Assembly: GCA_963769025.1 (NCBI GenBank)
Contig: CAVYKI010000003.1
Location: 256,001 to 320,000 of the forward strand
Length of the DNA: 64,000 nucleotides
DNA from: an uncultured Verrucomicrobiae bacterium
GTDB lineage: Bacteria; Verrucomicrobiota; Verrucomicrobiia; Chthoniobacterales; Chthoniobacteraceae
Reading direction: 5' to 3'
Numbering within the stretch: position 1 is the first letter of the stretch; every line of letters begins with the position of its first letter. The notes under the pieces were generated by a model. That model was not told where the DNA came from. It did no database searches and was given only the letters and a program-made list of their open reading frames with translations. Shown here piece after piece: positions 2,055 to 35,660 of this stretch. The translations under genes were made by a program, and so were the position numbers.

Positions 2055-2174
2055 TGCTGCGTGGCGGCCGGGCTTCCCTTCGTCCTGAATCACCATTCGC
2101 CGGAAAGGGAATCGCCACGGCGCATGCGTTGCGGAAAGGCCTCCGGCGGCGTATCCTAAGCGGCAGGATAACCC

Positions 2175-4250
2175 ATGAACCCGACCCCTCGAAAATTCAT
2201 CCGCTTTCTCGCCGATGAATTTCACAGCGAGAGCTGGTCGCTTTCGGCGAAACGCGCCGAGGAATTTGCGCCGGACGATCCGCTGAGTTCCTCCTACTCG
2301 CGTGCCGCCGAGGCGCTCGCCGCGCGGGACTTCACCGTGCAGCGAAACCGCGACACGCCCCTCACGCCGGAGCTCCTGGCGGAGGCGGACGTGCTCGCGC
2401 TGCTGCATCCCTGCGACCAGCGGTGGGAGCGCACGACCTCGTCCGCATCGCCGGCGCTCGCGCCGGATGAAATCAAGGCCGTGCTCGCATGGGTGCGCGC
2501 AGGCGGCGGGCTGCTCGTGGTGACCGAGTACGAGCACGACAAGTACGGCGACAATCTCAATGACCTCCTCGCGCCGGCCGGGCTGCGCATCGAGAACACG
2601 CGCGTCTTCGACCGCAGCGCGTGCGTCCCTGGGAATCCCGAGTGGATTTTTGGCGAAGCCGCGTCCGCCACTCCGCTCGCGCACCTCGCGACGCGCGCGT
2701 GTTTTTTTCGCGCCGGGTCCTGCACGATGACCGGCGACGGCGCGCGCGTGGCGTGGCGTGCGTCTGCGAACGCGCACCCGCCGGGTGCCTGTGTGATCGC
2801 GTGCGCGGAACTCGGCAGCGGGCGCATTGTGGTCGTCACGGACTCGCTGCTTTTTGGCGACGAACACGTCGGCGAGCACGACCACCTGCAGCTCTGGCTG
2901 AACATCGTCCATTGGCTCGCGGCACCGTCCTACGATCGCGCCGGCGAAACCGAGGCGCTGCGGCAACAAAGCGTCTCGCCGACCGTGACGTCGCCGTCGT
3001 GGACGCGGTTGAAGGGGATCATCAATACGCTGCGCGCAATTCAGGACAAGGACGGGAGCGTGGGCCTAGCGAACCACGACGGGGCGACCAAGCTCGTCGA
3101 GGCGGCGACCGGTGAAATCGCCGCGCTGGCCCGCCACTTTCCGCATCAGGCGGATTACTTCGCACGGCTGCCGGAGGATCTCGCGGCATGGCAGCGCGAC
3201 GGCTTTGGCCGACCGGATTTTGCCGCATCACTGGCTGCCTTCCGGCCGGAACTGAACCGCCGCGACGGCATCGAGCATCTCGTCGTCTTCCCGATGTACA
3301 CGCCGAATGCGTCGGCGGACATCCGCTTCGAGGCGCTGATCATCCGCACGCAATGGCCCGACTGGCTCGCGGCGCTCGAGGGCGGGCCTTATCCGGATTC
3401 GAAATTCGTCCCGCTCGGACTCGTGGACTTCACGGACGGATACGCGAGCGAATGCGCGGTGCTTTTCCCGGAAACGGTCTCCGTCGCGGGCCGCGCGACG
3501 AATCACTTCGGCGGCATTTTCTGCGACCGCGAGGCCCGCCGGCTGCAGTCCACCGCGGTGCGCGCTGCTTCCGAAATGGGCATGCGGCTTTTCCCGGAAC
3601 TGGAGTGCCTGCTTGCGTGCCGTCCGCTGCTCGAGTCGGTCTGCGCGCTCTGGGATCTCATCCACGACCAGTCGCACTCGCTCGGCGAACTCCCGTTCGA
3701 CCCGTTCATGATCCGCCAGCGCGCGCCATTCTGGATGTATGCCATCGAGGAGCTCCGCGTGGATGTGCGGGCGTTCGGCGAGGCGCACCGGCTCGCGCGC
3801 GAGGGGTTCCCATTCGCGCGCTACGTCTGCTGGGCCATCGTGCTCGACCGCATCCTGCGCTTCCCGATCACCGGGACCCGCGTGCGGAATTACGACGCGC
3901 TCGGCGGGCAGATCCTTTTCGGCGCGCTCCATCAAAGTGACGCCGTGGTGTGCCGCGACAACCATTTGGAAATCCGCTGGGAAGCCCTGCCCGATGCGGT
4001 GCGCTCGCTCGAAGCGGAACTCCACGCGCTTTACAAAACCGGCGCGGAGTGCTCGCGCGTCGCCCTGTGGATGGCCGCGCACGAACTCGTGAGCCGCCAC
4101 GTCCACCCGAACATCGGCTCCCGCTGGAAATCCGATGCCCTCCCCGACGAGGGCGACCCGAAGGCGTGGCTCGCGCTGGTCCACGAGGACGAGTTCCCGC
4201 TCGGGAATTTCCACCTGCTGCTGGGGAAAAGGTTGAGAGTCGAGGGTTGA
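2175..4250 (+). CDS. Two-domain protein: N-terminal GATase-like/DUF4350-like domain plus C-terminal DUF6421-like domain
   Basis: DEFHSESW...GGGLLVV N-domain; C-domain with FPMYTPN, VLFPETV, HDQSH, EELRVD and RNYDALGGQ. Confidence 0.65.
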   Translation: MNPTPRKFIRFLADEFHSESWSLSAKRAEEFAPDDPLSSSYSRAAEALAARDFTVQRNRDTPLTPELLAEADVLALLHPCDQRWERTTSSASPALAPDEIKAVLAWVRAGGGLLVVTEYEHDKYGDNLNDLLAPAGLRIENTRVFDRSACVPGNPEWIFGEAASATPLAHLATRACFFRAGSCTMTGDGARVAWRASANAHPPGACVIACAELGSGRIVVVTDSLLFGDEHVGEHDHLQLWLNIVHWLAAPSYDRAGETEALRQQSVSPTVTSPSWTRLKGIINTLRAIQDKDGSVGLANHDGATKLVEAATGEIAALARHFPHQADYFARLPEDLAAWQRDGFGRPDFAASLAAFRPELNRRDGIEHLVVFPMYTPNASADIRFEALIIRTQWPDWLAALEGGPYPDSKFVPLGLVDFTDGYASECAVLFPETVSVAGRATNHFGGIFCDREARRLQSTAVRAASEMGMRLFPELECLLACRPLLESVCALWDLIHDQSHSLGELPFDPFMIRQRAPFWMYAIEELRVDVRAFGEAHRLAREGFPFARYVCWAIVLDRILRFPITGTRVRNYDALGGQILFGALHQSDAVVCRDNHLEIRWEALPDAVRSLEAELHALYKTGAECSRVALWMAAHELVSRHVHPNIGSRWKSDALPDEGDPKAWLALVHEDEFPLGNFHLLLGKRLRVEG

Positions 4251-4328
4251 AGGTTGAGAGGAGCAGGGATGCCACGGGCGCGACAACCAACGCCTAGGCT
4301 CTGCCTCTCAACCTTCAACTCTCAACTC
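4229..4328. repeat. Inverted pair of heptamer tandem repeats (GGTTGAR / YTCAACY)
   Basis: gttgaaggttgagag at 4246-4260 is the reverse complement of ctctcaaccttcaac at 4305-4319. Confidence 0.8.
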
Positions 4329-4381
4329 GCGCCGCTTTCCCCTTCCCTTGCGGAAATGCTTTCGCTTTCCTTCACGGCCCG

Positions 4382-5128
<747 letters not shown>

Positions 5129-5146
5129 CTCAAACACCCACGACTT

Positions 5147-5709
5147 ATGGACCCCGACGAAATCCTGCTGAACACCGAGGAAGGCGATGGAAAAGGCGTC
5201 CGAATACATGTCGCACGAATTCGCCTCCGTCCGCACCGGCAAGGCCTCGCCCGCGCTCGTGGAGAACATCGATGTCGAGGCCTACGGCTCGATGATGAAG
5301 CTCAAGCAGCTCGCGCTCATTTCCACGCCGGAGCCGCGCATGCTCGTCATCAGCCCGTTCGACGCCGCGACGACGCAGGACGATCGAAAAGGCGATCAAG
5401 GAATCCAAGCTCGGCATCAAGCCGATCGTCGATGGCAAGATCATCCGCCTGCCGATTCCCGCGCTCAGCGAGGAGCGCCGCCGCGACCTCGTGAAGACGG
5501 TGAAGCAGATCGCCGAGGAGACGCGCGTGCGCATCCGCTCGGCGCGCCGCGAAGGGATGGATCAACTCAAGAAAGCGCAGAAGGAAGGCGTCATCACCGA
5601 GGACGATCTCAAGCACTCCGAGAAGGAGGTGCAGAAGCTCACCGACGACTACGTGAAGAGAGTGGACGACGCCTTCGCACTGAAGGAAGCGGACATCATG
5701 AAAGTCTGA
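5147..5709 (+). CDS. frr: Ribosome recycling factor (frameshifted)
   Basis: [24 protein letters not shown]...KEADIM motifs; follows pyrH. Confidence 0.92.
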
Positions 5710-6992: not shown

Positions 6993-9251
<2,259 letters not shown>

Positions 9252-9254
<3 letters not shown>

Positions 9255-9360
9255 GAAGGATGAAGGGTGAAGGCTAAAGGATGAAGAAAGGCGGGCGAAG
9301 CGACATGGTGAAGAGCGAAGGAGAAGTGCGCCTGCTTCATCCTTCATCCCTCATCCTTCT
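9252..9360. repeat. Inverted pair of heptamer tandem repeats (GATGAAG / CTTCATC)
   Basis: About 5 GATGAAG-like units at 9252-9286 face CTTCATC units at 9335-9360. Confidence 0.8.
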
Positions 9361-14836: not shown

Positions 14837-16019
14837 ATGAATTCCGGCTTCCTCGACAAACTCCTCGAACGCCTCGGCCGCGTCCGCCCCGAGGAGATCC
14901 GCGACTACGTCGTGCGGCTCGCCGACGAAAAGGGATTCTTCGAGACGATTTTCGACGCGCTGCACGAGGGAGTCATCGTCACCGACCCGACGGGCGCCAT
15001 CACTTATCTCAACCGTACCGCGTGCGGGTTTTTCGGCATCGAACGCGACGCCGCGATGGGGCGTCCGCTCGCCGAGCAGCTCCGCGGCCTCGACTGGAAC
15101 GCCATCGCCGCCTCGGAAAAATCCGTGTCGCGCGACATGGAGGTCTTCTATCCGCAGAACCGCTTCCTCAATTTCTACGTCGCGCCTCTGCGGGTGGAAA
15201 AGGCGCCTGCGAAAAAGGGCGGAACCGCCGAGCAGGAACTGATCGGCTACGCCGTCATCCTGCGCGACATCACCGAGAGCCGGAAGAGCACCGAGGAGAC
15301 GATTCAAAGCGAACGCCTCAACGCGCTCACGATGCTCGCCGCCGGGGTCGCGCACGAAATCGGAAACCCGCTCAACTCGCTGAACATCCAGCTCCAGCTC
15401 CTCGCGCGCCGCATGCGAAAACTGCCGGACAGCCAGCGCAAGGATCTCCTGAAAAGCGTGGACGTGGCGAAGGAGGAAATCTCGCGGCTCGACACGATCA
15501 TCCGCCAGTTCCTCGGCGCCATCCGCCCTGCGCGGCTCGAACGCCGCCTCGAAAACGTCAACCATCTCGTCCAGGAAAGCGTCCGCTTTCTCGATGCCGA
15601 GACCACGGACCGCAACATCATCGTCGAGACCGAACTGCGCGCCGATCTTCCGCTGCTCGAACTCGACCGCACCCAGATCAAGCAGGCGTTCTTCAACGTG
15701 ATCCGGAACGCCTTCCAGGCGATGAAAAGCGGCGGCATCCTGCGCATCCGCACGGACATGGACGACCGCTTCGTGAGCATCACCTTCGCCGACACCGGCG
15801 GCGGAATCCCCGAGGCGGAGATGAGCAAAATCTTCGAGCCCTACTTCACCACCAAGGCCGCCGGCAGCGGCCTCGGCCTGCTCATCGTCCGCCGCATCGT
15901 CCGCGAGCACGGCGGGCGAGATCGAGCTCATGAACGACTCCGGCAAAGGCCTCGCCCTCACGATGAAGCTCCCCATCGGCGACCAGCGCCTGCGGATGCT
16001 GCCCGCGCCGGCGGCGTAG
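14837..16019 (+). CDS. PAS-domain sensor histidine kinase (NtrB-like; frameshift near 15915)
   Basis: PAS region, AHEIGNPL H-box, NAFQAM N-box, DTGGGI, FEPYFTTK and GSGLGL. Confidence 0.9.
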
Positions 16020-16236: not shown

Positions 16237-19200
16237 GTGTCGCATTCCCGTCGCTGGCTTCGCGCCTGCCGAGTCTTCGCCATCTTTCTCTTCCTCTGCG
16301 CGCTTTGCTCGCGGGCGGACACGGAGGTTTTTGAGATTCGTACTTCAGCACCGTTTTTCGGGCGGACGCTTACTCAGACCGAGAACGTGGACAACACGAG
16401 CTGGCAGGTAGGGACGCTCGCATTTTCCCAGAGCTGGAATGGCCAGGCTGGCGTGTGGGACGGCTACGCGACGCTGCCCGGCATTGAATTCGACCTGAAT
16501 GCATACAACCACTTTACCTTCTCCCTGTCCGACTCGGACCTGCGCTGCGCGATAGGCCCCCTTGCCATTCAGGAGGCGCGGAACTCGGATCATGTCCTCT
16601 GGCTGGATTTCAAGCCGCAGTTTACCGGCCCCGCAACGTGGAGCTTCATGGTCCACGCCGATCTCGTCGGTCACGCACTCGGAGTCGCGCAGCCGGTGGA
16701 GGGCGGAGGCCCGCCCGTGGTTTCTCCCCTGTCTCTTGGCAGCGACTGGTTCTCGGCCTATCGGCTGGAAGGCGGCGGTTCGCCATTTTACGGGGTGCGC
16801 GCCTCGGCCCCCGTGGATCCCGCGAAGCCGTTCTGGGTCGTGGATTTCACCACCGGGCTGCGCGCCCCGGCCGGCGCGACGTATCTCCGGGAGGGGTGGC
16901 TGCCCGACACGGCCTCGTATCCGCTGGTGTCGGTTTCCATCCATCTCGACGCGAACTCCGCCGGCGATCGCTTCACGCTGCACTGGCAGTCGCCCGGACA
17001 GCCGGAGATGGTCCAGTCGCTGCTCGCCGCTCCGGGGGACACCGGCTGGCAGCAGATGGGCAATTGGGCCTGGGAGGATCTGGGCGGCACCGTCTCCGTG
17101 ACGGGGAGCGTCGCCCTCGGGGCAAACTATTGGCTGACACGCGACTCGGACGGCTGGACCTACGACTTCGGGATGCTGGATCCGTTTGCCCAGCGGCCCG
17201 ATCCGCTCCGGTGGTCGTTGCGCGGCATGGCCGCCCCGCCCGTGCAGTGGCAGACGGTGACGTTCCATATCGCCACCGGCTACGGATGGTCCGCGGGCGT
17301 GGTTCAGCCCGGCGGCATGAGATCGCTCAGCCCCACGTACAGCGGCACGTTCACACTGCCGGATGCCGACGAGTGGGGCAATCCGCACGACTTCTACTAC
17401 GAGGAATGGACGGCGCAGATCGACCCGCGCGAACCGTACTGGCTGTCGGTCTCGGGCACGCAACTCAGCTACGGCGACACCTGGTTTTTCAATGGCTGGA
17501 CGGCGATGGGCGGCGCACCGAGGGACATGCAGTCGGTCACCTTCGGCATCGAGAGCGGATTCCGGTGGATCAGCCCCTATGTGAGTCAGAGTTCCGGATC
17601 CCAAAATCTCACGCTCTCCGGGGAGGGATATCAAATCCAGGACTTCACCGCCGACGGCACACCGAATGATTTCCACTACGACCTGTGGAATGCCACGGTG
17701 GATGTGAACCGCCCCTACTTCCTCACCGTCAATGGCACCACGCTCGATGCCAACCAGACATGGTTCACCAACGGCTGGCAGTGGCAGGGCGGCAGTCCGG
17801 CACCGCAAAACTGGCAGACGCTGTATTTCACCATCGCGAGCGGCTGCGGCTGGTGGGGTTCCTACGTCACCCAGGGGAACAACTCCTGGGCGCTGAACTA
17901 TTCGGGCACCGGCGGCTACATCGAGGACTACTGGAATGACGGCAGCGGCACCCCGAATTTTTTCTACTACGATGTTTTTTCCGCGAATGTGAACCTGAAC
18001 CTCCCCTTCACGCTCACCGTCAACGGCCAGCAACTCGCACCCGGCGACACGACCTTTTACAATGGCTGGACGTGGCAGGGCGGGCAAAGGACCACCACCT
18101 TCACGCTCAATCTCACGGTGCCATCCGAGCGCGCCAGCCACGATTTCACCCTCACCGCACCGGACGGTGCCTCGGTCACGTGGACGCCCAATGGCTGGAC
18201 GAGCTGGCAGTGGATTTCCCTCTACGATCCGTGGAGGCTTCATTCGTGGGGAATGTGGGGCTCGCTCAGCAACATCTCGCAGACGCTCGACTGGAATGGC
18301 TCCGCCGGCTCTGGACGCTCACGGATACGGTGACGGGGGAAAATGTGCAGTTCGACCCCTCCGGCGCTGCGAGCCATGCGCTGGACCTCAGCCAGTGGTG
18401 GCTCCCGGCCACGCCCATCCAGTTCCAGGTATCCCTCTCCCGCTGGGGCCACGATCTCCGTCTCCGGCAAAAGGACGGCGGCGAATACTTCCTCACGCCC
18501 GGCAGCAGCCAGGGCGGGCTCGTGCAGACTCCCGACGGCTCGTGGGTGGAGAGCTACTACTATTTCGATGCCACCGGCTACCGCCGCGACATGCCCGGAG
18601 TCGACTGGTGGATTTACGACGCCACCACCGCCGAATACGCCCCCGCGAACACCTCGGACCTCACCGGCTGGTGCTGCACGCCAAGCCCGTGAACCTCGCG
18701 GCTGTGCAAAACGGGCTCGGCAGCGTGGACATCACCTGGGATTTGCTCCCGGCTGCGGCTCGGAACTTCTCGCGGGCTCCTTCACCATCACGCGCACTGA
18801 TGGCGGGCTGACCTATTCCACCGCCGCGACCGCGTTTCTCCGGGAAGATGGGAGCTTCGCGTTTCACTACACCGACGCCAGCCTGCAACCCGGCACCTAC
18901 ACCTATCACATCCGCTACTCGTACGGCTCGCAGACCGGCGAGGCCGCCGTGGTGGACGCCCCGGTGCTCGACGCAGAAGGCTACCTCAAGACCGTGGACA
19001 GCGACGGCGACGGCATCAGCGACTGGGATGAAATCCGCCTGGGCAGCGATCCGAACGACCCGGAGAGCGTGCCGCCGACCGACCCGCAACCAACAGAGCT
19101 GCCACCCCATCCGCCAGAGTGGCGGGCGATCACACGCGCGGTGGGAACGATCTTTCGGGACTATTCAGTAGAATCGGGAGGACCATACGGATTCGCAGGC

Positions 19201-20572
19201 ACTTGGATTCGGGGTGAGGACACCTATTGGTCCCTGCGTTCGCCCCTTGCCTGGACTTCGCTGGGAGCACTTCTGCAACGGAAGTCCCGTTTGATGGGGC
19301 TACTCCGGATTCGGAGAATCCAATTCCTGGGAGCCGGTGGCTACGCCGAGACATGGCCGGACCCTGACGGGCAGTATTACAACGCCCCAGGGTTGACCCA
19401 TCGCCGCGTCTGGCTCGAAGTGCAGCCCGCCGCCACCGAGGCCATCACTCGGCAAATGCTTAAGGTGACCAAGCGAACCATTGACGGCAGGGATCCTGGT
19501 GCTACAAGTGGAACCTGTGACGGTCACCATTCCAGCGGAAGCGACCAAATCCGCGCCAATAGACCTCCTTCCCGCATTCACCACATCCCCGACAGACGGT
19601 ACCCACACGGAGACTGTGAATGTGAGCCTCCTCCCGGTGGACATAACGGTGAGGAAGAAGGGTGAGGCGGTCGATCCGAAAGGAGCCTTGGTCAAGATGT
19701 TTGACACCGCTGAAATTGGGCTGAACCCAGGCTGCTTAGATCAAGACAAGCAGCTTGCGAATTTGATCACATGGGAATATCGCAGACTGTGGGGAGATGG
19801 CACCTTCACTGGGTGGGAAAACTTTGGGACGACCAACGCCAGCAAAGGAACAAAATTTGAATATAAATTCTATTCACCGGGTATCTACCAGATTCGGGCC
19901 AACATTACCTCTACCAATGGGCAACAAATATTTGATTACGTCAGAAAGAATGACGACCCTTTTGGGGCTGATTCCCACGGCACCTATAACAAACTCTACC
20001 GAAGAGGACAGGTGGATTACATTGGCGTCGCAAGGGCAGAACGTGACGCCGCGACTGGAGAAGGTGGCGCGAGCACGGCATTTGAGATTGTGAAGTCCGC
20101 ACGAGGAGCCCTCGATTCGAAGGCATGGGCAGAAGCTCCGGCATATACACTTTCAAACGGTTTTGTCGTACCGCCAGGAGCGTCGAAATGTAATATTTTC
20201 ATTTACGAAATTCTCAACCCATTAAAAGCGGTACCGGTTGACTCTGCAGGTGCTCCGCCGCGGGCGTATGAATGGTGGAAAGTTGATAAGAATATAAACG
20301 GCTGGACATGGCATGGAGGATCATGGTATGCGGAACCAGGAGTTGAAGTGGCCAGATACCAAGGAGGATTTCTGCAATTTAGACTCCCGATATTACCTGG
20401 CCATTGTGGCATTCTCGATTACGATGGCGCTTGGATTAGCGCTGGCTCCGCTAACGTGAATCGCAATCCGCATATTACGGATAAGGGCTTTCACTACTCA
20501 AATAATGGCATGAGCTATAATCAAACCACGCTTCTAGAAATCCACTATCAAACTGCCACGTTCCGTGACTAG
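16237..20572 (+). CDS. Large secreted repeat protein (about 1400 aa when stitched across about 4 frameshifts): W/G-rich repeats, FN3-like domain, TSP3-like Ca-binding motif and C-terminal Cys/His papain-like domain; candidate polymorphic toxin
   Basis: Continuous protein-like sequence across ORFs 16237, 18072, 18062, 18343 and 19481; signal peptide; DSDGDGISDWDEIRLGSDPNDPES; KCNIF...GHCGI. Confidence 0.65.
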
Positions 20573-20580
20573 ATTACAAT

Positions 20581-21189
20581 ATGCAACCAATCCTCCTTCT
20601 CTCAGCCGCATGTGCTATGATTTCTACCGGGCTCGTCCGTGCGGTGCCTCCTGAAACCATCAATTTCCTCTCGAATACAGAGAATAAAGTCTCCGAGGAC
20701 GGAATTCTACCGGACGAGGATCTCGACGTATTACCTTGCGCTCGCTATGTCGTTGCAAACTGGCAATCGGTTTTGACGAGTTTCGCGCAGCTTGCGCCCG
20801 ACACGCGCCGTCAGCGCTTAGTGGTGGTCGCGGCCGAGTTTCTGCCTCCGCGTGACTACGTCTCTTTTGTGAGTGGAATCGCAGACCTCCAAACCACGGG
20901 AAACGCTACGCTGCAAACGATCAAAACCGTCGCGATAGCGAAGATGTTCAAGAACGGGTTCCTAGCGTACAACTTTGACAAGCCAGAGGTCGTTGGTCTT
21001 ATCGCGAAACTTGAAACTATCCTGCAAGCTGGGGAACCGGGGACGTGGACAGCATTCTTCACGGCCATGAAGGCCGGAACGCTTAAACAAGCCATTGTAG
21101 CTGAACGAACACGCGACGGCAACCCCATGCCCGAAGCCCTCGCCGATGGACCCAGTGAAGCATATCGACAGCTAATGGGTAATCAGTGA
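20581..21189 (+). CDS. Secreted hypothetical protein, candidate immunity protein
   Basis: Starts 8 bp after the upstream stop; signal peptide MQPILLLSAACAMISTGLVRA; low GC. Confidence 0.6.
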   Translation: MQPILLLSAACAMISTGLVRAVPPETINFLSNTENKVSEDGILPDEDLDVLPCARYVVANWQSVLTSFAQLAPDTRRQRLVVVAAEFLPPRDYVSFVSGIADLQTTGNATLQTIKTVAIAKMFKNGFLAYNFDKPEVVGLIAKLETILQAGEPGTWTAFFTAMKAGTLKQAIVAERTRDGNPMPEALADGPSEAYRQLMGNQ

Positions 21190-21214
21190 GGTAACGCGGC
21201 TGAATACGAAACTC

Positions 21215-21598
21215 ATGCAACTTCATCGGTTGCCAGCCAGGAGCCGTGCTCTTATTGTGTGCATCGTGTGGCTTTCAACAGCTCTTGCATTTCAAGTATT
21301 CGTGAAGCCGGAAGCGGTAACTGTAACAGATCTGAGTGAGATACAACAGAGAATTCAATGGCTGTTCCTTACGCCGATGATGGCGGCCGCCGGTCTTGCT
21401 GAAGCGCTTGCGTGGCCTAGTGAGTTCACCGTCGGAGGTCTCTTAGTCTCACTTGTGTGCCTCTCCGCACTTTCAATTAACACGCTTATCGTAAGTAGCC
21501 GCAGAGCTTTTGTCGTAATGATCTGTATTAACGCCGTAGTTCTTGCGATCGCCGTTATTTACTTCATCCGATTTTCGCGACTGCCTTCAGCCGGATAA
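21215..21598 (+). CDS. Small multi-TM membrane protein, candidate second immunity/accessory protein
   Basis: 127 aa with 3-4 hydrophobic segments; low GC; co-oriented. Confidence 0.55.
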   Translation: MQLHRLPARSRALIVCIVWLSTALAFQVFVKPEAVTVTDLSEIQQRIQWLFLTPMMAAAGLAEALAWPSEFTVGGLLVSLVCLSALSINTLIVSSRRAFVVMICINAVVLAIAVIYFIRFSRLPSAG

Positions 21599-22146
21599 CG
21601 CAAATTGAAGCGCCCGATGCAACCGCCTTGCCATTCAAGTGTGGCGGCGTCCCGCCGCGGCAACTGCCTGCGCAGCCGCCCGCCGTGCAGGCAGCTGCGC
21701 CGCCGCAGCGAGCCGCCCACTTAACCACCGGCACCCTGCGCCGTCACTCTCCTGCTAGCCGCGCCGCAGACCCCAACCCCCGCCCGCTCCGCCCACCGCG
21801 CGGCTGTCACGCCGGCTGCTTGCGCGAACCGCTGCGCGCGGCACTGGCCCGCCCATCATTCCGCCGGGCCAGTGCCGTGCTCGCTCAGCATACAACAGCG
21901 GTAAGGCAAAGTGCCGGCAGGCCGCTCCGCCGCTTCTCCACGCACCGGCGCCGCGCTCCAAGGGAGTCCTCCGGCGCCCCCGGCACTTTACCTTACCGCG
22001 CGTTGTATGCTGTAGCGCGGCAGCCGTCGCGCCAGCCGCCCCGGAGGTGGAGCATCCGGCATTCACCCGCCCCGACACCACCGCTGCCGTTCATGAAGCA
22101 CAATTGGCTTTTGACGGCGGCATTACATCTGGCCATTCTCCCGGCG

Positions 22147-22773
22147 ATGCCGAAGCCGCTCACATGGGATTCCGATGACCCATCCCTCACCTGGGATGCG
22201 CCGGGGCTCACGTGGGACGGATTCGTGCCTGAAGACAACAACCCCAACCCACAGACTAATACCATGCTGCAAGACCTGATAGACCTGAACCTGAGCGATG
22301 CGGACTGGGCGGAGATTGATGCCGCCCTGACCACATTGGAAACCAAACTCGGCGCGAACCTGCTCGACCTGACGACCGAGCAGCGCATGAGCCTCAACAA
22401 GATGGGCGACCGGAGCGAGCCCTTCTGCCGCCAGTCGCTCATCATCGGCCGGCAGAACGCCGCCGAACTGACCGCGCGCGCCGCCGCCGCGCTGGCCAAG
22501 GCCGAGGGCGACCTGGCCGCCTGCGAAAAGCTGCGCCTGCGCCTGACCCGGCTGACTTCCCTGAACGAGAAGGCCAATGACTCGGAAATGGCGCTCGGCA
22601 GCGACGTGATGGAATACGCGCTCTTCCAATACGGCTTCCTGAGCGCCATCGGCGCCGGGGCCGGGCTGGACGATCTCTACGCCCAGCTCGGGCAGCGTTT
22701 CGCCAAAGGCTCCCCGCAGCCCGCACAGCCCGCACAGCCCGCACCGACGCCCACGCCCACGCCGCCCGCGTAG
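22147..22773 (+). CDS. Conserved hypothetical helical protein with N-terminal LTWD repeats (start could be 22264)
   Basis: High-GC codon usage; IDAALTTLE...KMGDRSEPFCRQ...LGSDVM resembles a widespread uncharacterised family. Confidence 0.65.
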   Translation: MPKPLTWDSDDPSLTWDAPGLTWDGFVPEDNNPNPQTNTMLQDLIDLNLSDADWAEIDAALTTLETKLGANLLDLTTEQRMSLNKMGDRSEPFCRQSLIIGRQNAAELTARAAAALAKAEGDLAACEKLRLRLTRLTSLNEKANDSEMALGSDVMEYALFQYGFLSAIGAGAGLDDLYAQLGQRFAKGSPQPAQPAQPAPTPTPTPPA

Positions 22774-22963: not shown

Positions 22964-24120
<1,157 letters not shown>

Positions 24121-32302: not shown

Positions 32303-32611
32303 CTACTTCGGCTGCTTCAGTTTTGCGCCGAGCCTTTCGCCAAATGTCGTGAACTGGTTCACCACGTCCGGGATCCGCTGAAGCACCGCCTTGGCGAGTT
32401 TCTCGAGGTGCGCCGGGTTGCGCTGACCGAGTTCGCTGAGCGCCATGATGACCGCAAAGGTGTTGTTTATCCCGTGCTTCATCTCGCGATAATGCGCGTG
32501 GAGTTCCTCGAGTTCGGTGCGATTCAGGAGCGGGTCGCTGGGATCCATGAGATTGGTGGCTGGGACTTGGTCGAGGGTCATGGGCGCGCTTTCGGCTGTC
32601 GGTAGTGACAT
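32303..32611 (-). CDS. Small protein with a HisKA/H-box-like helix pair
   Basis: EMKHGINNTFAVIMALSEL resembles an H-box; no ATPase domain. Confidence 0.5.
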   Translation of the reverse strand: MSLPTAESAPMTLDQVPATNLMDPSDPLLNRTELEELHAHYREMKHGINNTFAVIMALSELGQRNPAHLEKLAKAVLQRIPDVVNQFTTFGERLGAKLKQPK

Positions 32612-32746
32612 TGGGATGACCCCTGCAAGCGCAGGAACAGTGCCAGCTCCAAGGCTTTCTGCCAAGGCCCCCGCCTCATTCAAGATTCCGCTTTTCCAGA
32701 GGTTCCCGCGAGTGCTTCACTGGGCGGTTACACAGATGCGCCCCGA

Positions 32747-35656
<2,910 letters not shown>

Positions 35657-35660
<4 letters not shown>

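Follow-up and report, generated by a model that had tools for sequence, protein, structure and literature searches.

The 64,000-nucleotide window analysed here (positions 256,001 to 320,000 of contig CAVYKI010000003.1, assembly GCA_963769025.1, from an uncultured bacterium of the Chthoniobacteraceae, Verrucomicrobiota) harbours, between 16237 and 21598 counted from its first letter, what is best read as a polymorphic toxin-immunity locus. In this reading, to which a probability of roughly 0.7 is assigned, a Sec-exported carrier protein of ~1,440 amino acids (aa) ends in a horizontally acquired tip that is a predicted peptidoglycan hydrolase, and the gene directly downstream encodes a likely periplasmic immunity protein. 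The first-pass annotation of this DNA had proposed a toxin-immunity locus at these positions, and the proposal is supported by the swapped tips of related carriers, the gene that travels with the C-terminal module in 44 of 51 loci, the hydrolase-like fold with its Cys-His-Asp set and a model of the toxin in complex with its partner.

Mechanistically, the precursor would be exported by Sec and the carrier would display or release the tip, the present tip having possibly replaced an earlier one by recombination downstream of a TSP3 motif. On reaching the periplasm of a competitor, the tip would cleave peptide or amide bonds in the cell wall. The 202-aa downstream protein would cover the active site in the periplasm of the producer, and this cover would protect the producer during passage of the toxin as well as against attack by kin. 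The features on which the argument is built are the following.

16237-20572, plus strand: toxin gene of ~1,440 codons, split by four single-base frame breaks into five frame segments (list of open reading frames and colinear homologs)
16237-16317, plus strand: Sec-type signal peptide (read by eye; the N-termini of the homologs P0022-P0024 are equivalent)
16261-19101, plus strand: conserved carrier region common to P0022, P0023 and P0024 (the first 650 aa are 51-58% identical)
17239-18084, plus strand: three tandem 93-aa Trp-rich repeats (40-44% identity, 28 invariant columns)
18690-18990, plus strand: FN3-like beta-sandwich segment with two frame breaks inside (read by eye)
18997-19062, plus strand: TSP3 repeat of the calcium-binding type, DSDGDGISDWDE, at the end of the conserved carrier (Pfam TSP3_bac)
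19102-19479, plus strand: linker without a match to the carrier family or the module family, of intermediate third-position GC content (GC3 0.66)
19550-21600, no strand: low-GC island holding the module and both small open reading frames (GC 0.511 against 0.645 for the genome)
19631-19945, plus strand: Ig/PKD-like beta-sandwich, first half of the mobile module (AlphaFold2 model, Foldseek neighbours)
20072-20569, plus strand: divergent CHAP/NlpC-P60-like predicted hydrolase domain (alignment, AlphaFold2 model, VIA-align)
20581-21189, plus strand: 202-aa signal-peptide protein, predicted periplasmic immunity protein, starting 8 nucleotides (nt) after the toxin stop
21215-21598, plus strand: 127-aa orphan open reading frame, starting 25 nt after the stop of 20581-21189

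A carrier family with exchanged C-termini

The carrier gene is distributed over open frames at 16237-18330 (frame 1), ~18300-18689 (frame 0), ~18690-18760 (frame 2), ~18765-19662 (frame 1) and 19469-20569 (frame 2). Since the five segments are colinear with intact homologs, three of which (full-length proteins) align completely across them, they are taken as a single ~1,440-codon gene with frame breaks near 18295, 18683, 18765 and 19487, each a shift by one base. At its N-terminus the protein has a signal peptide, read by eye as MSHSRRWLRACRVFAIFLFLCALCSRA/DTE and likewise present in P0022-P0024, while Trp and Gly make up 6.2% and 10.9%, respectively, of the 698-aa N-terminal piece. The TSP3_bac repeat (PF18884) exceeds the Pfam cut-off (E 2.1e-7; 31.1 bits, cut-off 25). 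Since two frame breaks run through the FN3-like segment, its identification remains one made by eye: fn3 (PF00041) has no Pfam match in the pieces of the window, which are separated at that very point, and a sub-threshold fn3 match lies at a comparable place in the distant carrier homolog P0040.

Toxins of the Rhs and contact-dependent inhibition (CDI) types possess YD/RHS or haemagglutinin repeats with a TpsB partner, and a PxxxxDPxGL or VENN motif at the boundary of the variable part. Neither kind of repeat has a Pfam match in the window or its relatives (the two boundary motifs were not searched as patterns), and the RHS, haemagglutinin, PAAR, VgrG and LXG families are without a match in the pieces of the window as well as in 38-41 related full-length or long proteins. 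Furthermore, Pfam reveals no dedicated trafficking domain in the window protein, and TssC/VipB (PF05943), a marker sought for type VI secretion (T6SS), was not found in the genome (83% complete). The description given at first pass, namely a large signal-peptide protein with Trp/Gly-rich repeats and a TSP3-like motif, free of RHS, CDI and T6SS hallmarks, is thus borne out by the 93-aa units, the Pfam searches and the failure to find TssC.

A word-indexed search of longer proteins returned P0022, P0023 and P0024 (1,533-1,893 aa), which are 51-58% identical to the 698-aa N-terminal piece and share with it the signal peptide, the repeats, the conserved middle region, the FN3-like segment and the TSP3 motif. 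Their similarity to the window extends from 16261 to ~19100 and stops directly after the TSP3 motif; none of their tails is like that of the window, and among themselves the tails have one weak Ig-like stretch in common. A full HMMER scan of 1.84 billion representatives enlarged the family to 65 representatives at E<=0.001. Seventeen of these are at least 1,200 aa long; grouped by their last 350 aa, they yield four small clusters plus eight singletons, that is, 12 tail groups; one of the 17 (P0063) bears the module of the window (E 5e-102). An invariant C-terminus, named by the first-pass annotation as an outcome that would speak against a swapped tip, is not what the search for N-terminal homologs returned: carrier homologs end differently, as seen both after the TSP3 motif of P0022-P0024 and across the 12 tail groups. 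The carrier is a small family with a common architecture up to TSP3, followed by unrelated C-termini. It has no family name in the libraries searched, and NCBIfam gave no match for six proteins of the window.

As judged from sequence, the tips to which a family name can be attached are hydrolases of kinds used as antibacterial effectors. Those of P0023 and P0033 are alpha/beta hydrolases, the former by sub-threshold Hydrolase_4/PGAP1 matches and a GHSRGG motif seen by eye, the latter by DUF900. A distant carrier relative from the same genus (L062, G022:C320, 4521-10705, minus strand; 1,780 aa) ends in Amidase_3, an N-acetylmuramoyl-L-alanine amidase domain (E 5e-13); its stop codon overlaps the start of a 281-aa open reading frame (ORF) whose product has a signal peptide as well as a C-terminal anchor, and the two genes likely constitute a second toxin-immunity pair of the carrier family. 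The genome itself holds no paralog of carrier or module, and among 40 relatives the carrier has one distant match and the module two weak ones.

The mobile module and its co-travelling partner

Within the toxin gene, the passage from carrier to module coincides with a change in base composition. The GC content falls from 0.61-0.67 to 0.47-0.55 between ~19.5 and 21.6 kb, GC3 is 0.82 for the carrier and 0.51 for the module, and homology to the module family begins at 19469-19630, where the GC content drops. Among 10,628 windows of 2.05 kb across the genome, only 0.02% are as GC-poor as the island, a result that agrees with the compositional drop recorded at first pass. The module and the two small ORFs are the most GC-poor 2 kb of the genome and are foreign in composition. 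Scans for promoters, terminators and repeats found nothing at the island borders, and no orphan cassette was seen in the window.

The module also occurs outside this carrier family. A pattern scan of 185,579 species genomes located 56 module loci, of which, by record title, 27 belong to Verrucomicrobiota, 14 to Kiritimatiellia, 3 to Lentisphaerae, 1 to Planctomycetota and 9 to other bins, with 2 unassigned. At every locus the module is C-terminal in its ORF, and the ORFs range from 250 to 1,717 aa. Among 19 full-length carriers scanned, seven have TSP3 repeats, single ones have RCC1, Laminin_G_3 or Big_1, and none has a known toxin-trafficking domain. Within the phylum, the module is patchily distributed: of the 401 genomes sampled, 10 were found to contain it, and of the 185 genera, 7.

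The conserved C-terminal module comprises 313 aa (19631-20569), in line with the ~310 aa estimated at first pass. The 363-aa last frame segment, which includes it, has 20 relatives beyond its own entry in a set of 5.8 billion proteins, none of them with a Pfam domain. In an alignment of 65 module rows, W48, C187, P209, H258, G260, Y264 and D265 are invariant (Cys187 at 20189-20191, His258 at 20402-20404 and Asp265 at 20423-20425), and the motifs KCNIF and GHxGIxDYDG stand out. AlphaFold2 returned a mean predicted local distance difference test (pLDDT) score of 32 for the 363-aa piece as a single sequence; the model used here was built with the 65-row alignment and reached a pLDDT of 90.9 and a predicted template modelling (pTM) score of 0.89. 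It consists of a beta-sandwich (residues 1-105) followed by an alpha+beta domain; there, a helix (187-195) begins with Cys187, and His258 stands at the start of a strand (257-262).

For the first domain, Foldseek against the PDB listed Ig, PKD, CARDB and FN3 domains only (E>=1e-3), and a sequence and profile search of the PDB gave a weak match to designed Ig domains. For the second, comparison with 48,161 chains by VIA-align placed exclusively NlpC/P60 or CHAP cell-wall hydrolases among the ~40 best neighbours (Z 8.9-7, root-mean-square deviation (rmsd) ~3 Å over 110-127 residues). The best of them is LytE (8i2f_B; rmsd 3.0, 110 residues aligned), at a Z of 8.9 that is modest, barely over the level common for unmatched models in VIA-align and to that extent a caution; CwlO follows at Z 8.0, and the T6SS amidase effectors Tae3 and Tse1 at Z 7.3 and 4.9, respectively. 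The Pfam family CHAP matches 12 of the 65 module members below threshold (best E 2e-4).

Other searches count against a hydrolase assignment. Foldseek listed no hydrolase from the PDB at E<=1e-3, and PDB searches with the protein and its profile found none either. The module of the window has no Pfam match over the cut-off, so that membership in NlpC/P60 or CHAP fails at the sequence level, and hhalign of the module with 14 canonical NlpC/P60 domains from relatives gave a non-significant probability of 0.13%. Within the genome, PF00877 is confined to another gene, a canonical NlpC/P60. Because these sequence-level tests fail, the domain is filed as divergent CHAP/NlpC-P60-like and as a member of neither Pfam family. 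Nevertheless, the fold assignment is credible, since the list of neighbours is uniform and the catalytic layout matches; on the strength of the model, the module is credibly an Ig/PKD-like domain joined to a papain-like predicted hydrolase domain with an invariant Cys-His-Asp set.

The gene at 20581-21189 accompanies this module. Among the 51 loci with at least 700 nt of downstream DNA, a homolog lies directly downstream of the module in 37 with a one-round profile (32 at E<1e-5), and in 44 after two rounds, with a profile built from the first-round matches. Six of the seven remaining loci have an adjacent signal-peptide ORF of ~270 aa. In the seventh (L027, 2-1222, on a short contig of a gut bin), homology to module and immunity protein lies in one 406-aa open frame, which is either a fusion or the result of a lost stop codon. 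Where it occurs, the homolog does so irrespective of the carrier, the carriers ranging from 250 to 1,717 aa and differing in their domains. The immunity gene travels with the toxin module and not with the carrier. An invariant neighbour was the other outcome that the first-pass annotation had named as adverse to its proposal; the downstream gene instead follows the module across unrelated carriers (44 of 51 loci).

Nearly all immunity homologs have a signal peptide, and the longer forms also have a hydrophobic C-terminal anchor. The family is highly divergent (mean column identity 14%), and Pfam, applied to 48 homologs, gave no consistent family. The immunity gene is tandem-doubled in four loci (L015, L034, L035 and L043). 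In two others (L053, 3477-5636, and L054, 5656-7004), the toxin has decayed: the catalytic region is gone, leaving a carrier N-terminus attached to the module's final 60-80 residues, and an intact immunity gene follows in both. L015, in which a full toxin is accompanied by two immunity genes, and L053 belong to one record set.

The pair was also modelled as a complex, with residues 106-313 of the toxin and 22-202 of the partner. The median score over three runs was 0.73, and the highest-scoring of three controls gave 0.34. Of 157 solved complexes, 116 attain a mark of 0.73, as do 2 of 215 mismatched pairs; these counts hold roughly here, the alignments having been purpose-built, and are the weaker for it as support. 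The runs agree in at least 63% of contacts, with a partner pLDDT of at least 87. On the toxin side, the confident interface involves residues 181-184 and 247-258, among them positions next to Cys187 and His258 itself. The model thus supports binding of the downstream 202-aa protein over the active site of the predicted hydrolase.

The last ORF of the island (21215-21598; GC 0.50), a candidate gene, encodes at least three hydrophobic segments. A set of 5.8 billion proteins contains no relative of it other than its own entry, the 56 loci contain none, and because of this lack of detectable relatives a role in the system is not supported. Of the two small, tightly linked low-GC genes pointed out at first pass, both ORFs and their short spacings (8 and 25 nt) stand, while a part for the second of them in the system is not supported.

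Beyond the island, the stretch 21600-22100 has a GC content of 0.73 and contains inverted repeats at 21836-21880 (16-nt arms) and 21898-21999 (20-nt arms, 95% complementary). It is followed by an ORF at 22102-22773 (plus strand), which starts MKHNWLL, has a hydrophobic N-terminus and short repeats ending in TWD, and belongs to no Pfam or NCBIfam family. An IS110-family transposase (DEDD_Tnp_IS110, Transposase_20) is encoded at 22964-23992 (minus strand), 1.4 kb past the island. Elsewhere in the window, 2172-4247 (plus strand) encodes a protein of 692 aa that contains DUF4350 and matches DUF6421 strongly (E 5.5e-136).

Weighing the alternatives

Apart from the fold searches already described, several points weigh against the toxin-immunity reading. 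No known outer-membrane export or delivery part was found, and the route into the periplasm of a Gram-negative competitor is left unexplained. TSP3 alone is not a toxin marker, because another TSP3 protein of this genome (contig C3, ~236-240 kb; L088, 3117-7445, minus strand) carries PA14, GLEYA, CHRD and DUF1800; a further one (contig C9; L089, 4862-9208, minus strand) is a 1,448-aa protein with TSP3 only and an IS200-like transposase nearby. To these are added the orphan nature of the 127-aa ORF and the frame breaks, four within 4.3 kb, which are also compatible with a decaying gene. Moreover, a hydrolase with a dedicated inhibitor can equally be a housekeeping pair, as the analogy of LytE and IseA suggests.

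This last point leads to an alternative that is considered unlikely, in which the protein would be a secreted or surface hydrolase for remodelling the own wall or for scavenging peptidoglycan of dead cells, the downstream protein a regulatory inhibitor, and antagonism would play no part. The best structural neighbour of the module is indeed an autolysin solved together with its inhibitor, the genus is rich in secreted hydrolases (the window itself has esterase, sulfatase and peptidase genes), and no delivery machinery was found. However, a cassette of foreign DNA, patchily distributed (10 of 401 genomes of the phylum) and attached to many unrelated carriers, is at odds with a function in wall upkeep, as is the exchange of tips within one carrier family, amidase and lipase-like tips included. 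Immunity genes that are duplicated, or retained beside decayed toxins, point the same way, and a canonical NlpC/P60 gene exists elsewhere in the genome.

The frame breaks bear on a further alternative, namely that the locus is dead, the toxin gene being a true pseudogene with four frameshifts and at most the immunity gene being functional in this strain. In its favour are the number of breaks in so short a gene stretch, the decay of toxins beside intact immunity genes elsewhere in the family and the IS110 transposase 1.4 kb downstream. Yet the same window has further broken genes, essential ones among them: pyrH (out of frame) and frr (5172 onwards and 5299-5709, split at ~5380) are both disrupted within 4258-5709. 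The histidine kinase adjoining the locus has a frame shift near 15915, the match of a GDP-mannose dehydratase (8331-9350, minus strand) covers profile positions 1-225 of 332 only, and that of uvrA (32609-35657) is spread over two frames. The genome comprises 13 contigs and 5.3 Mb, and its marker completeness is as low as 83% although the assembly is of near complete size. Furthermore, all the breaks in the toxin gene are single-base events, the frames contain neither stop codons nor deletions, and the homology to intact relatives is colinear and complete. Single-base insertion or deletion errors thus look common in this assembly, whose gene calls need care, and because the essential genes frr and pyrH nearby are broken too, the four frame breaks are probably assembly errors and the organism probably has an intact toxin gene. 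The pseudogene explanation is rated as rather doubtful, slightly below that of an own-wall hydrolase.

A toxin or adhesin directed at a eukaryotic host or prey, with the Cys-His-Asp domain acting as a protease, deamidase or acyltransferase on eukaryotic targets, is highly improbable: transglutaminase-like and deamidase toxins do occur among papain-like folds, the fold lists have transglutaminases in low places (3s3p, rank 5 by Foldseek; 7c9j, Z 5.6 by VIA-align) and many homolog loci stem from gut metagenome bins, but an adjacent signal-peptide partner is unexpected for a toxin without a target in its producer, the ~40 best fold neighbours are bacterial cell-wall hydrolases and related carriers bear a peptidoglycan amidase.

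A broader proposal, which is offered tentatively and rates as improbable rather than remote, is that the carrier constitutes a Sec-exported delivery vehicle for antibacterial enzymes that is specific to the PVC (Planctomycetes-Verrucomicrobia-Chlamydiae) superphylum and independent of the type V, VI and VII secretion systems (T5SS, T6SS, T7SS) and of Rhs shells. Its Trp-rich repeats might bind the target surface, and TSP3 might serve as the point of recombination and hand-over for exchanged amidase, CHAP-like, lipase-like and other tips. If true, it would represent a further trafficking class of polymorphic toxins, one needing its own way across two outer membranes.

Comparison with known systems

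Soil, water and guts commonly harbour Verrucomicrobiota, Kiritimatiellia and Lentisphaerae. If the mechanism proposed for the toxin-immunity locus is true, it would show a mode of competition among these bacteria, provide a compact enzyme-inhibitor pair for cell-wall studies and raise the question of how an enzyme borne by a giant Sec-exported protein gets into a competitor's periplasm. The locus brings together three unnamed families (carrier, CHAP-like module and immunity protein) outside the known T6SS, Rhs and CDI frames. No description of any of the three was found in the literature searched, and a description elsewhere is possible.

With respect to fold, the module resembles the CHAP and NlpC/P60 autolysins and endolysins (LytE-IseA, 8i2f; CwlO, 8wt3; the CHAP domain of LysGH15, 4olk) in having a Cys at the start of a helix, a His on the next sheet and a third, acidic residue, and in many of these enzymes, as in the module, an Ig-like domain precedes the catalytic domain. 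Unlike them, it stays below all Pfam cut-offs, lies on foreign DNA and has a co-travelling partner gene. The Tae-Tai pairs (Tae3-Tai3, 4hz9; Tse1, 3vpi) likewise combine a papain-like Cys-His fold with an adjacent signal-peptide partner, the covering of the active site being a prediction in the present case. Tae proteins are, however, small stand-alone effectors of the T6SS, whereas the domain described here ends a Sec-exported protein of ~1,440 aa in a genome without a detected TssC; no sequence similarity between Tae proteins and the module is detectable.

The closest framework is the catalogue of polymorphic toxins by Zhang et al. (2012; PMC3482391), which includes a class with a signal peptide only (termed “T2SS”, after the type II secretion system). 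As with the systems described there, the locus has a conserved N-terminus, diverse C-terminal tips behaving as mobile cassettes, a downstream immunity gene and, at related loci, toxin remnants with a kept immunity gene. It differs from them in that its carrier lacks RHS, filamentous haemagglutinin, LXG, MafB-N, PrsW and a releasing peptidase (by Pfam), and in that the boundary between constant and variable parts coincides with a TSP3 motif. The catalogue also describes a Tox-NLPC/P60 tip with C, H and D residues, which it restricts to Bacteroidetes and delta-proteobacteria and gives as trafficked by T6SS, PVC (there a trafficking route) or TcdB/TcaC; it gives no immunity protein for this tip.

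A further parallel is provided by the TANFOR carriers of Bacteroidetes, located in neighbourhoods of the type IX secretion system (T9SS) and characterised with a DNase tip (Jana, Salomon and Bosis, 2020; PMC7073777). Both systems employ a phylum-restricted N-terminal carrier of unknown function, diverse C-terminal toxins and downstream immunity genes. The tips named here, however, are hydrolases of the cell-wall and alpha/beta kinds, and the organisms belong to Verrucomicrobiota, Kiritimatiellia and Lentisphaerae; the likeness to TANFOR is one of layout, with none in sequence expected. Thus, while the layout of the locus is known as that of a polymorphic toxin system, the PVC-superphylum carrier family, the divergent CHAP-like tip and the immunity family are its unnamed constituents.

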